This document shows, in pieces, positions 7,209-10,403 of a stretch of 14,709 bases of DNA. Each line of letters opens with the position of its first letter. The first letter of the stretch is position 1. Origin of the DNA: a virus; UHGV virus genome UHGV-0109417, one strand, 5' to 3'. The translations under genes were made by a program, and so were the position numbers. The notes beneath the pieces were generated by a model. That model was not told the origin of the DNA. It saw only the letters and a list, made by a program, of their open reading frames with translations, and searched no databases.

Positions 7209-7254
7209 CGGTGGCCTGATGAGACGTTTTGGTGAAAGCATATAAGGACTGGTG

Positions 7255-8121
7255 ATGGAAAACACTGGCTTACACGATGTTAATTTTTCACTTAGATATG
7301 ACGGTTTGGATGCTGAAAAGCATGAGATTGAACTTTCTTCGCTCGGTGAATCGCTAAAGGGATTTTCGAAGATATTAGCTACAGCTGGAACCTTCGCATT
7401 AACCCAAAAGTACTCGCGAAGCACCTCAACTCAAGAGGTTAAAATTTACGCTACCGAAGCTAGGGCCAATTGTTTTTCTCTTGATACTATCATGAATTTT
7501 ATCAGTCAGTCTCAATTGTTCTCAGGGTCTGCGGGGGCTATACTTGGCGCATTAGTGCCTTATATCTTCGCTAAAAACTCGCAGAAGAAAGAGGAAATGA
7601 AATACCTAAAAGAAGCACTTGAGAAGGCAATTGAGGCCCTCGGAAATAAAGATAAAGATACCATCTCAGGTCTAATCTCAGTGATTGACAAGATGGCTAG
7701 TGAGTTACGCCCATCAGTTAGACAGGCAGTTTCCCCCATCGGTACCACCTGTAATAAGATAAGCGTCACACCGGGGAATGGTTTCAAGCCTGCTGTAATT
7801 GATGAGCAAGATAAAGCAGTAATAGACCAGTTGGACGACGACGAAGTTCTTGGCTTAAGGGAGTATCGAATCTTCCTTACTGAATTCGACGCTCACCGAA
7901 TGACCGCTAAAGTCATTATAGAAGGTGATGATTCAGATAAGCGCATCTCAGCACAAATAAGCGATCCATCTGCTTCAAAGGCAGACAACCCGTATCTCAT
8001 TTCACTTAGTCGTTTTCTGTCAACGGGTCTAAGTCATGAGTCAGCGGTAAAAGTAACTGCCAAAGCAGCAGTTAGAAAAGGGGCTATTAGTAAACTTTTC
8101 ATAGTTGATATTGAGCTTTAA
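7255..8121 (+). CDS. Hypothetical protein (288 aa) in the rexAB-equivalent slot downstream of cI; candidate exclusion/defence gene
   Basis: ATG at 7255 with AAGGA RBS, 47 bp after the cI stop and on the same strand. Ends at a strong intrinsic terminator. AT-richer than cI. No similarity to RexA or RexB recognised and no obvious multi-pass TM segments. Confidence 0.8.
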
Positions 8122-8124
8122 CAA

Positions 8125-8147
8125 CCGGCCACCGCGCCGGGTTTTTT
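8125..8147 (+). terminator. Intrinsic terminator ending the cI operon
   Basis: Stem CCGGC/GCCGG (8125-8129/8136-8140) with loop CACCGC, followed by GTTTTTTG. Confidence 0.75.
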
Positions 8148-8151
8148 GTGC

Positions 8152-8370
8152 CTACTTCACAGCTTTACTACCCTTCCTGACTATCTCAGCTGCATCCCGT
8201 AGCATCCCCTTATGGATCACGTTTCCTACGGCTTTGCGCTTCCCTTCCAGAAATCCCACAATGTTGTCCTTATTGATTTCAATTCCGTTATAAACCAGCT
8301 CGAACACTACGCACCCAACCTCTCCAGCCATGAAGGCCATTCGTTCATCTGCACGTTCATCTCGTTCCAT
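8152..8370 (-). CDS. Hypothetical small protein (72 aa), convergent with the 288-aa gene
   Basis: ATG at 8370 preceded by a strong SD (CAGGAGG, 6-nt spacer); translation begins MERDERADERMAFMAGEVG.... Its upstream region overlaps OL. Confidence 0.5.
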   Translation of the reverse strand: MERDERADERMAFMAGEVGCVVFELVYNGIEINKDNIVGFLEGKRKAVGNVIHKGMLRDAAEIVRKGSKAVK

Positions 8371-8412
8371 AGCTACCTCCTGATGTTTTTTGCAGCATAG
8401 CACGTACTGCAC

Positions 8413-8520
8413 AAATCCATAACAGAACTAAATTAACCAATAAATCATAACCTTAATAACCAATGGCAAAATAATTAACCAACGGTTATTGACTGAAAAT
8501 AACCATTAGTTAATAATCAG
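8413..8520. promoter_or_regulatory. OL operator / PL promoter region
   Basis: Palindrome TTAACC-AAC-GGTTAT (8475-8489) and further TAACC/GTTA half-sites like those in OR. Plus-strand promoter TTGACT (8489-8494), 16-bp spacer, TAATAA (8511-8516). Confidence 0.6.
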
Positions 8521-8582
8521 CTCATCGAAACGAAACATCGACAGCTGAGCGAAGTTAGCCAGCGGCGGACAGCAAGTCGCCT

Positions 8583-8603
8583 GCTTCTTTAACAAATCAG
8601 ACT
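8583..8603 (+). promoter_or_regulatory. boxA-like antitermination element (nutL position)
   Basis: TGCTTCTTTAACAAATCAGAC, about 60 nt downstream of the putative PL start, resembles consensus boxA (CGCTCTTTAACAA) and the rrn leader boxA from memory. Confidence 0.5.
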
Positions 8604-9143
8604 GAGTGACAGGCAAGCCGTAGCTCTCCTGGCAAAAAGAAATGGCACCCGATGGGATCGAGGTAAGCACTGAGTCCGTATGCGTACGGTAGGTGTAGAG
8701 GACCACGCTGCGATGAGCTGATAAGTCACTCAATTTGAAGCGCTCCGATGATGGGGCGCTGATTCAACTTAGAGGAGTGATTCCAATGAAGAACTAAAGC
8801 GGACAGACCGCAGCCTAAAGGCAATGCAGCAGTAATGATGCCGCCCTGAGTCGCCGAATGGCGAGCCTGTGTAGTGATGGGTCAAGGTTCTTATATCAAA
8901 ACAAGCTCCGGTAAAGCAGCGAGAACGCCAGACGCGCACCGGTTATGAGCGGCGATGAGCGACAAGGTCTCAAGGGCATGTGCGCGGCCACTGCGAGAGT
9001 GTGGCGAAGTTTACCAGCAGCTCTTTGCGAGGGGCTGACGGTAAACAAAAAGAGGAGTGTGTATGGCAGATAAAAAAACGGCGCCACTACTGCTTAACGT
9101 AGACGCCAGCGAGGTACTTACTCAGACCGGGGAGCTTTTAAAG

Positions 9144-9365
9144 TTACTTGAACTTCCAGCCAGTTCCTTTCAGGGAATTCCTGAGCATGTCGTCGATCTG
9201 TTTTTTGACCGTGTCCGTGGCCTGATTGACAACATCGTCCTTAGTGATTTCTCGACCACAGTCAGCACAACTGACGCCGGTGAAATTTGTCTCAAAGTCA
9301 AAATCATCGGGCTGGTTGAACATCTCACTTCCGCAGTCAGGGCACACGGTCCGCATGGTTTGCAT
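9144..9365 (-). CDS. Small zinc-ribbon protein (CPDCG...CADCG), 73 aa
   Basis: ATG at 9365 preceded by AAGGA. Two CxxC pairs spaced 14 residues apart. Codon usage is better than that of the antisense plus-strand ORF 9057-9404. Confidence 0.6.
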   Translation of the reverse strand: MQTMRTVCPDCGSEMFNQPDDFDFETNFTGVSCADCGREITKDDVVNQATDTVKKQIDDMLRNSLKGTGWKFK

Positions 9366-9503
9366 GAATATATCCTTTCTACTGTTGGGGAGATTAAAGA
9401 GTAAGCGATTTCTTGCTGTTGGGGAATAGCGGGAAAGCGCGCGCCGGGCGCGGATAAATACCCCGGCACTAACTGGAATGTTTTGGGCTGGCAGACGGTT
9501 ATC

Positions 9504-9540
9504 AGCTAGTTGGTGAGGTAATGGCTCACCAAGGCGACGA
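9504..9540 (+). other. 16S rRNA helix-11-like segment forming a perfect hairpin
   Basis: AGCTAGTTGGTGAGGTAATGGCTCACCAAGGCGACGA matches, from memory, the conserved 16S region around E. coli positions 240-290, in a non-enterobacterial variant with compensatory changes. Stem TTGGTGAG/CTCACCAA with loop GTAATGG. Flanks (about 9450-9585) show weaker 16S-like similarity. Confidence 0.45.
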
Positions 9541-9623
9541 CGGCCTTCCCTGCTGCTTGAAAGCGGGGAGCCAGCACCAAAACATTTCTCCCGCATCAGC
9601 GGGTAACGACAGAGGGTAAGGGG

Positions 9624-9920
9624 ATGATCGACGACATCAAGCGCATCGACTCAATGATAAATGCGCTTCGCAATATGAAACAGGACATCAAGCGTCAGCA
9701 GAAACTAAGTGAAATAAACAGTTTAGACCTGTCGCCGAAGCAAGCTCAAAAGCGCAATGCCGATGCTGACTGGATTGCGATGGAACAGATTAAGCGTCGG
9801 CATGAGCTGCACGCTCTGTCTGTTGAGCTTGGGTTCGCTGAGCGCCGGGAAAGTTATGCTCCATTTGAATTAACTGACGGGTGGCACCGATTCGACCACA
9901 AGCCGCGCGAACCTCAATAG
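9624..9920 (+). CDS. Hypothetical protein (98 aa), first clear ORF of the early-left operon
   Basis: ATG preceded by a purine-rich SD (AGGGTAAGGGG). Followed immediately by an intrinsic terminator. Not Arg-rich-motif N-like. Confidence 0.6.
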   Translation: MIDDIKRIDSMINALRNMKQDIKRQQKLSEINSLDLSPKQAQKRNADADWIAMEQIKRRHELHALSVELGFAERRESYAPFELTDGWHRFDHKPREPQ

Positions 9921-9941
9921 CCGCCTAACCAGCGGCTTTTT
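9919..9941 (+). terminator. Intrinsic terminator inside the early-left operon
   Basis: Stem AGCCGC/GCGGCT (9919-9924/9932-9937) with loop CTAACCA, followed by TTTT. Confidence 0.55.
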
Positions 9942-10075
9942 CATACCTGGAGTCATTTACGAGTGGCTCAAGTTATGACAATCGGCGGCCATCCACCGCC
10001 CATTGAAACACTGAATAAATGCGTTGAAGTCTTGTATTAACCGTTCCGTTCGCCGCGATAAGGCCAAGAGGATTT

Positions 10076-10234
10076 ATGACAGTCACCCACAACGGCAAGC
10101 AGTACACAGCCAAAAAGCTCAACGATAACGAGTGGCAGCTGACGTCGGTGTCGGCACCGCGTGAAAAACTGGTGCTTAACCGCTGGCAGATGCATGTTGC
10201 CGGACTTCTTGAGCAGGTGGAGAAACAATCATGA
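10076..10234 (+). CDS. Hypothetical small protein (52 aa)
   Basis: ATG at 10076 preceded by AAGAGG. Stop overlaps the next start (ATGA). Not in the ORF track. Confidence 0.4.
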   Translation: MTVTHNGKQYTAKKLNDNEWQLTSVSAPREKLVLNRWQMHVAGLLEQVEKQS

Positions 10235-10403
10235 CCATCAATCACCAGTTACTCCGTATGGCCCAGCAGAAAGCCCGTGACGCCATTGCACAACGCAACG
10301 GCACCAAGTGGATGGAAGCCAACGAAGAGATGAAGATAGCCGCTGGCATGCCGTGGTATCGCGGTAATTCGAATCAGCGTGGAGGCGAGCATGCAGAAGT
10401 TTG
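10230..10403 (+). CDS. Hypothetical small protein (57 aa)
   Basis: ATGA overlap with the upstream ORF; translation MTINHQLLRMAQQKARDAIAQRNGTKWMEAN.... 3' end overlaps the next gene's start. Confidence 0.4.

Follow-up and report, generated by a model that had tools for sequence, protein, structure and literature searches.

A zinc-ribbon gene nested antisense within a second conserved reading frame: a predicted two-strand coding cassette of lambdoid and other phages

Two nested reading frames at one locus

This study concerns a pair of fully nested, oppositely oriented open reading frames (ORFs) in UHGV virus genome UHGV-0109417, of which we analyzed a stretch of 14,709 nucleotides (the window). 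The inner frame, which we call Z, occupies 9144-9365 on the minus strand and encodes a small zinc-ribbon protein. The outer frame, P, occupies 9063-9404 on the plus strand and is co-oriented with the operon transcribed from the early-left promoter, pL. Both lie in a 476-bp block, the cassette (9010-9485, features on both strands), which was 98% identical to phage HK639 by blastn and was also present in Enterobacter phages. In HK639, the equivalent block covers the annotated gene HK639_45, just downstream of pL.

Z encodes a predicted protein of 73 amino acids (aa; MQTMRTVCPDCGSEMFNQPDDFDFETNFTGVSCADCGREITKDDVVNQATDTVKKQIDDMLRNSLKGTGWKFK) with a four-cysteine zinc ribbon, a C-terminal helix, and a KGTGWKFK tail. 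Its two CxxC pairs are CPDC at residues 8-11 and CADC at residues 33-36. Z matched the NCBIfam model NF047912 (ECs_2282_CxxC) with 83.3 bits (E = 7.9e-24, cutoff 37) over profile positions 4-60 of 60; judged by this match, it belongs to the “ECs_2282 family putative zinc-binding protein,” and zinc binding is predicted. A profile search collected Z in 78 clusters, which extend to Rahnella, Rosenbergiella, Limnobaculum, Halomonas, and Agarivorans (26-46% identity). Among 40 homologues, down to 30% identity, C11, C33, and C36 were invariant, and C8 was present in at least 90%. RefSeq/PGAP calls the Z strand in each of the complete E. coli genomes that have the region (33 of 5,426), and identical copies of Z carry the NF047912 family name in RefSeq. 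A Leclercia chromosome, Agarivorans, and one metagenomic contig carry Z with no ORF opposite it. On these comparisons, Z is a genuine gene.

The annotated length of Z differs between records. PGAP and RefSeq start it at 9596, which gives 150 aa (9144-9596 on the minus strand; 4088-4540 in L091), and other records give 109-120 aa. The conserved part across Z homologues comprises the last 73-76 residues only, with no protein similarity upstream, and other lineages have in-frame stops upstream of the Z ATG. The versions of 109-150 aa are therefore probably annotation artefacts that extend the gene too far.

More specific identities for Z were tried and rejected. For restriction alleviation of the Lar/Ral type, the model TIGR03655 (anti_R_Lar) gave 17.0 bits against a cutoff of 39.6, and the Lar-like PHROG matches, at E = 0.05-0.1, reflect generic zinc-ribbon similarity only. 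The MqsA/YgiT antitoxin models TIGR03830 and TIGR03831 gave 16.9 vs. 61.8 and 16.7 vs. 20.2 bits, respectively, and this identity is also excluded by size, as the 73-aa Z has no helix-turn-helix domain. RNA polymerase subunit P scored far under its curated cutoff. In Pfam, Z returned generic zinc-ribbon matches only, all of them below cutoff, and P returned none; PHROGs yielded families of unknown function only. A partial and weak match of Z to PDC-M14A, component A of a candidate defence system in PADLOC (24.6 bits, E = 6e-6, profile positions 20-90 of 152) recurred in distant Z homologues. Literature searches on ECs2282, HK639, and PDC-M14 found nothing relevant, and no paper was found that mentions the ECs_2282 family.

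P encodes 113 aa of the HK639_45 family. Its ATG stands 5 nt after a Shine-Dalgarno sequence, GAGGAG, read from the sequence at 9052-9057 on the plus strand, and an upstream GTG of the same frame lies at 9057. The protein was 98% identical to HK639_45, which carries the annotation “unknown,” and weakly matched PHROG phrog_29546. A Shine-Dalgarno sequence followed by ATG was found in 8 of 8 deep lineages, the one in the Halomonas lineage being weak. An exhaustive profile search yielded 36 clusters of P at 50% identity, and the 21 that were aligned measure 91-116 aa. Of 82 unique close relatives, 81 have an unbroken P frame opposite Z. The part of P outside Z holds the N-terminal motif h-h-D-[AT]-[ST]-E..Q..EL as well as D14, which is nearly invariant among the 21 cluster representatives, and a profile built from this N-terminal extension recovered the P frame in distant loci (E = 2e-4 and 8e-3). 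Phage GenBank records annotate P and not Z. Taken together, P is very probably a genuine gene, with a predicted product. AlphaFold2 (AF2) modeled it (pLDDT 67.5) as an alpha/beta domain, its first strand being formed by residues encoded outside Z; the model of Z (pLDDT 66.7) shows the zinc ribbon followed by a helix at residues 42-68.

Upstream of Z, a Shine-Dalgarno sequence, AAAGGA, was read from the sequence 8 nt before the ATG (9374-9379, minus strand), and an AAGGA-type sequence precedes Z in 7 of 8 deep lineages. Exact repeat search and upstream alignment delimited a putative promoter and 5′ region at 9382-9425 on the minus strand. Here, the exact direct repeat TCCCCAACAG (plus-strand CTGTTGGGGA) occurs at 9382-9391 and 9416-9425, 34 bp apart, and its two copies flank a −10-like TTTAAT at 9393-9398 (minus strand). 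The repeats are kept in most lineages of the upstream alignment, with the variant TCCACAGNCAA in others, and could serve as a binding site for a protein or in control at the RNA level.

Both frames are conserved and under selection

The two frames stand in exactly opposite register, such that P codon position 1 pairs with Z position 3 and position 2 with position 2. Codons 1-27 of P lie outside Z, codons 28-101 lie exactly opposite it from its stop codon to its ATG, and codons 102-113 lie over the Z 5′ region. We counted substitution steps by Fitch parsimony on a neighbor-joining tree of 63 unique related sequences. In the overlap, Z codon positions 3, 2, and 1 took 245, 52, and 86 steps, and there were 205 synonymous vs. 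96 non-synonymous events in Z, giving a ratio of non-synonymous to synonymous rates (dN/dS) of ∼0.12. Z is under strong purifying selection. Coding by the plus strand only was rejected, as P position 1 is the most variable in the overlap (245 steps vs. 86 at position 3); the conserved Cys codons of Z contradict it as well.

In the part of P outside Z (26 codons, 9066-9143), P positions 1, 2, and 3 took 76, 57, and 126 steps, with 86 synonymous and 103 non-synonymous events (dN/dS ∼0.40). A minus-strand ORF was considered as the cause of this periodicity and rejected, since none spans the whole of 9066-9143. Within the overlap, the 113 informative events that are synonymous in Z produced P replacements that sum to BLOSUM +46, against an expected −18 to +6. 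At most 67 of 10,000 simulations reached the observed sum, including those under a codon-usage-weighted null (P ≤ 0.007), and a sign test of P replacements restricted to transversions gave 25 better, 6 worse, and 23 ties. Changes that are silent in Z are thus biased toward conservative changes in P.

We also estimated how often the frame opposite Z would be open by chance. With background codons taken from neighboring long ORFs (TTA and CTA together 0.18 of Leu, TCA 0.20 of Ser), the chance of a stop-free frame opposite Z was 0.11-0.54 per lineage, and the joint chance of open P frames in 8-12 deep lineages was ∼1e-5 to 1e-8 if the lineages are independent. Wherever the Z Cys codons are kept, the opposite P codons must be NCA, and Ala or Thr stands at the two unambiguously readable P C-terminal positions opposite Z Cys codons in all aligned P clusters. 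Because all aligned P sequences keep these residues, no P without Z was seen. As would be looked for in an antisense pair, both ORFs are intact, each with a start and a ribosome-binding site, in diverged lineages with few Z-alone exceptions, and purifying selection can be assigned to each frame, the signal of P in the overlap being weak.

The pair is also widespread. P and Z both recur in more than 80 viral contigs and in the 33 E. coli genomes mentioned above, and about 13 lineages, ranging from E. coli phages to a Halomonas prophage, keep the P frame free of stops across Z. In distant lineages, where Z is 31-46% identical and the surrounding modules are unrelated, Z again lies within an opposite-strand ORF of 80-103 aa, which begins 18-30 codons past the Z stop codon. 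Such enclosing ORFs were seen in a baseplate/Bro region of Klebsiella, an early-left operon of Rosenbergiella, a tail module of Enterobacter, and a lysis module, as well as in Limnobaculum, in Rahnella, and in a Halomonas prophage, where the pair lies next to the repressor. The cassette of a Rac-like prophage is placed between racR and kilR. The flanking genes run opposite to Z in 12 of 12 phage contexts and share the direction of P wherever P is present. Because this orientation is constant in all contexts examined, what moves appears to be a P frame that follows the operon and carries Z on its other strand. Z itself shares with accessory genes (morons of the lambda sieB type) its orientation against the surrounding lytic operon.

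An earlier note on this DNA had proposed a zinc-ribbon gene on the minus strand at 9144-9365 and, overlapping it at 9063-9404, a plus-strand ORF with a strong ribosome-binding site, and had regarded the coding strand as unsettled. The minus-strand gene is confirmed by the NF047912 match (83.3 bits), by a dN/dS of ∼0.12, and by Cys residues that are invariant or nearly so, and the plus-strand signal is indeed present as GAGGAG 5 nt before the ATG. Homology searches with both translations led from Z to NF047912 and from P to the HK639_45 family, both ORFs being conserved. Coding by Z was therefore borne out, and the question of the coding strand had an unexpected answer, as P also shows independent signs of coding. 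The same note had called the arrangement unusual for the N-proximal region. Two-strand coding of this kind is rare, but the arrangement is not peculiar to that region: the cassette recurs in HK639, in Enterobacter and Klebsiella phages, in a Rac-like prophage, and in tail and lysis modules, and lambda sieB provides a precedent.

The early-left region around the cassette

By homology, the window comes from a phi80-like lambdoid prophage, of which it covers the early-left region. Blastn aligned 7210-8595 to phi80 gene 40A, pL, and the nutL boxA at 90% identity, and 9577-10079 to phi80 N and the terminator tL1A at 99% identity. A sigma-70 scan located pL (TTGACT-17-AATAAT, 10 of 12 matches) at 8489-8517 on the plus strand, which matches the annotated position of phi80 pL; by this evidence, pL is where the plus-strand transcript that crosses the cassette originates. 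A boxA-like nutL sequence, CTGCTTCTT, lies at 8581-8590 on the plus strand and aligns to phi80 (L001 3568-3576). Similarity to phi80 stops at 8595, just past boxA, so the phi80 nutL boxB hairpin (CACGTAAACGTG) was not found anywhere in the window. Between boxA and N, ∼980 bp (8596-9576) stand in place of 292 bp of phi80. The N antiterminator gene (9624-9920, plus strand; 98 aa, 99% identical to phi80 N) lies downstream of the cassette on the shared transcript, and tL1A follows it at 9919-9937 on the plus strand, as located by a terminator scan and by phi80 homology. Since the flanks with pL and N are homologous to phi80, Z lies inside the pL transcript and upstream of N. The earlier note had Z antisense to this transcript, and the phi80 homology on both sides together with the pL match at 8489-8517 agrees with it.

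Several other features of the region were noted. Around pL, at 8440-8520, there are repeats (TAACCAATGG, TAACCAACGGTTA, and TAACCATTAGTTA) that are unlike the CI operators of phi80, in flanking DNA that is phi80-like; this difference suggests that the phage of the window has an immunity specificity other than that of phi80. Some 220 nt in the gap between boxA and the cassette (8785-9005) were 80-89% identical to unannotated intergenic DNA of many lambdoid phages, among them mEp213 (upstream of a second N-like gene), Stx2c-converting phages, and Hafnia phage yong1. The folding energy of 8780-9012 was unremarkable (z = +1.05). The stem-loop of the terminator after N (AGCCGCCTAACCAGCGGCTTTTT) is the same as that of a terminator directly after the P/Z cassette in viral contig L084, and in relatives such as this one the cassette appears to run straight into tL1 without an intervening N. 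The phi80 GenBank record annotates another mutually antisense pair, PHI80_43 and PHI80_44 (L001 4541-4806), between N and kil, and positions 10076-10222 of the window were ∼85% identical to the 3′ part of that pair (L001 4583-4729).

On the plus strand, 34 nt past the P stop codon, a script search over lineage variants found H-type pseudoknot geometry at 9438-9467. Its elements are, in order, S1 CGCG, L1 C, S2 GCCGGG, S1′ CGCG, L3 GAUAAAUAC, and S2′ CCCGGC. The geometry was present in 14 of 17 lineage variants, with S1 of 4-6 bp, L1 of 0-3 nt, S2 of 4-6 bp, and an A-rich L3 of 6-9 nt. The stems were tabulated by script, as the MAFFT alignment is not structure-aware; compensatory variants numbered at least 7 for S1 and 4 for S2, with one G·U pair that is valid on the plus strand only. 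An Rfam search of 8300-10300 (E up to 1) returned a spurious microRNA family as its sole match and none at the pseudoknot. Many relatives have an intrinsic terminator of P-sense orientation a short way past the element. Two roles were considered and rejected. As a −1 frameshift site, GGGAAAG (9431-9437) with the pseudoknot comes after the P stop codon, has a spacing of 0 nt, and has an unconserved heptamer. Intrinsic termination or attenuation in the Z sense is contradicted by the poor U-tracts of the element and by loop lengths that suit a pseudoknot on the plus strand only.

Interpretation and comparison with known systems

We consider it probable that the locus is a mobile cassette of ∼476 bp coding on both strands, in which Z is genuine and P very probably so. 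Both frames are conserved and selected across the sequences compared, and the orientation of the cassette in phage operons is fixed. We propose that P is translated from its own strong ribosome-binding site on the pL transcript that it shares with N. In a lysogen, where pL is repressed, Z would be transcribed from a weak promoter of its own just past the end of P, with TTTAAT between the TCCCCAACAG repeats as its candidate −10 element. Upon induction or infection, antiterminated transcription from pL would meet this promoter head-on, and the RNA made would be complementary to Z mRNA. This would silence Z at the time when P is translated, and the two products would belong to mutually exclusive states. 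We infer both the Z promoter and the reciprocal expression of Z and P. Z would be the older partner, since it also exists alone, and P would have arisen by overprinting opposite Z together with an N-terminal extension of ∼27 codons. As to roles, our guess would be an accessory or exclusion-type function in the prophage for Z, with P acting either against Z or alongside it.

A number of points weigh against this reading. P has no Pfam or NCBIfam model match, and PGAP does not call it. Its C-terminus varies among lineages, at total lengths of 102-125 aa; P is broken or absent with Z intact in Leclercia L010 and in Agarivorans L098 and L101, and it is truncated in L103. Inside the overlap, the plain dN/dS of P is 1.42, so constraint on P there is weak and secondary to that on Z. 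The 12 P codons past the Z ATG (9366-9401) took 14, 11, and 14 steps at the three positions, without codon periodicity, a flat pattern that fits constraint from the Z promoter and 5′ region and not from P. Both the stop-avoidance test and the conservative-change test treat the lineages as roughly independent, and codon preference in Z, which has C at 45% of four-fold sites vs. 28% in the background, could partly mimic their outcomes. The confidence of the AF2 models was only moderate for P and Z (67.5 and 66.7), and fold searches of P against BFVD and of Z against PDB gave no match at E ≤ 0.001. A scan for sigma-70 consensus promoters and for terminators reported no minus-strand promoter or terminator for Z, so the Z promoter remains putative.

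Some of these points are what would be expected if only Z were functional and P were kept translatable so that an antisense insert of ∼350 nt avoids ribosome-polymerase uncoupling, polarity, and RNA decay. Such a bridge would account for the overlap dN/dS of 1.42 and the variable C-terminus, and also for the way P always spans Z, beginning 18-30 codons beyond the stop codon of Z and ending no more than a few codons after its ATG, always with a Shine-Dalgarno sequence and ATG and always co-oriented with the operon. It would not account for selection at the amino acid level on P outside Z (∼0.40), for a D14 motif found from E. coli phages to Halomonas, or for the bias of Z-synonymous changes to conservative P replacements. 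In addition, polymerase in the pL and late operons is antiterminated and resists Rho, which lessens the need for a bridge, and we think this explanation unlikely. The 27-codon extension, with its periodicity, its dN/dS of 0.40, its conserved ATG and Shine-Dalgarno sequence, and its motif, is likewise left unexplained if P is a shadow ORF, open by chance since Z has few Leu and Ser codons and annotated by gene callers that choose the longer frame. The Z of the window does have only two Leu and three Ser codons, which makes the chance of a stop-free opposite frame 0.34; shadow ORFs are classically found in the exactly opposite frame; and PGAP annotates Z only, with P missing at some Z loci. However, chance would also have to produce the fixed orientation in 12 of 12 phage contexts and the joint open-frame probability of ∼1e-5 to 1e-8 over 8-12 deep lineages, if these are independent, and we regard the shadow ORF as quite improbable.

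The minus-strand product could instead act mainly as an antisense RNA in the lysogen, pairing with the leader of pL transcripts, whether from the resident phage or from a related superinfecting one, and thereby lowering expression of N and the early genes, with the zinc-ribbon ORF secondary. The position of Z in the N leader, antisense to the pL transcript, suits this idea, and an antisense RNA of superinfection exclusion, STnc6030 of prophage BTP1, is documented (PMC7067206). Yet Z is constrained as a protein (dN/dS 0.12, conserved Cys), only protein similarity remains in a family at 26-46% identity, and the cassette also lies in tail and lysis modules, far from any N leader. A role of the RNA could co-exist with coding by Z but cannot be the main constraint, and as the principal explanation we hold it to be highly improbable.

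Returning to two-strand coding, the reading can be taken further. P and Z may be an anciently conserved, mobile protein pair on complementary strands whose members function together, with Z, for example, exclusion- or toxin-like and P its lytic-phase antidote or partner. Head-on transcription would then be the switch, with the covarying pseudoknot just 3′ of P belonging to the same unit of control. We put this extension forward tentatively and find it rather doubtful; if true, P/Z would represent a new type of module, in which linkage and reciprocal expression are enforced by the use of both strands.

Long antisense overlapping genes in bacteria and phages are still disputed, and most of the proposed cases are young, confined to a single species, and based on expression data alone. 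The P/Z pair is small and fully nested, appears to have moved between phage types and host orders (Enterobacterales, and Halomonas of the Oceanospirillales), and has kept both frames, each with its own signature of selection. Since a stop codon in one frame can be silent in the other, clean single-frame knockouts can be designed, and cultured phages and lysogens carrying the cassette exist (HK639, Enterobacter phage ENT1, and E. coli ABWA45). The pair could therefore serve as a tractable model for the origin and persistence of overprinted genes. It also corrects annotation on both sides, as phage GenBank records call P only and RefSeq calls Z only, often with a spurious N-terminal extension (109-150 aa).

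Among known systems, the closest by sequence are the family and the phage that share these genes. NF047912 supplies a name without an attached function, and its annotation is silent on members nested antisense in a second conserved ORF. HK639 resembles the window in that the P homologue, HK639_45, is the first ORF downstream of pL. It differs in that only the plus-strand ORF is annotated, Z not being annotated, and in that a putL-like antiterminator RNA is annotated between pL and HK639_45, whereas the cassette of the window sits between the nutL boxA and N. A parallel in logic is sieB of lambda, which confers superinfection exclusion and lies within the pL operon, beside N but antisense to the pL transcript. 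Expression from the prophage keeps sieB on while the operon is off, as we propose for Z. The two are non-homologous, and sieB, unlike Z, encodes 184 aa without a zinc ribbon, lies downstream of N, and is not nested in a sense gene.

Accessory loci antisense to lytic genes, along with an exclusion antisense RNA, have been documented in Salmonella prophages (PMC7067206). In Pseudomonas phage Fc02, olg1 and gene 10 form an overlapping antisense pair at the lysis-lysogeny region, next to the repressor; the lysogen transcribes one ORF together with the repressor; the other, an early lytic gene, directly follows ner in the lytic operon; and both show exclusion activity (PMC9936078). Fc02 is a different type of phage, and no sequence relationship to P/Z is expected. 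Moreover, the overlap of P and Z is complete, in exactly opposite register, and conserved over many phage types and host orders. Embedded antisense genes of E. coli are reportedly mostly young, taxonomically narrow, and supported by expression data. The proposed cases (e.g. PMC9927249; bioRxiv 10.1101/2020.11.18.388249) share with P/Z the placement of one ORF antisense within another gene. P/Z differs from them in its deep comparative support and its mobility. What was already known of Z is its family name; what is new is its conservation within a nested, mobile cassette that codes, as we read it, on both strands.
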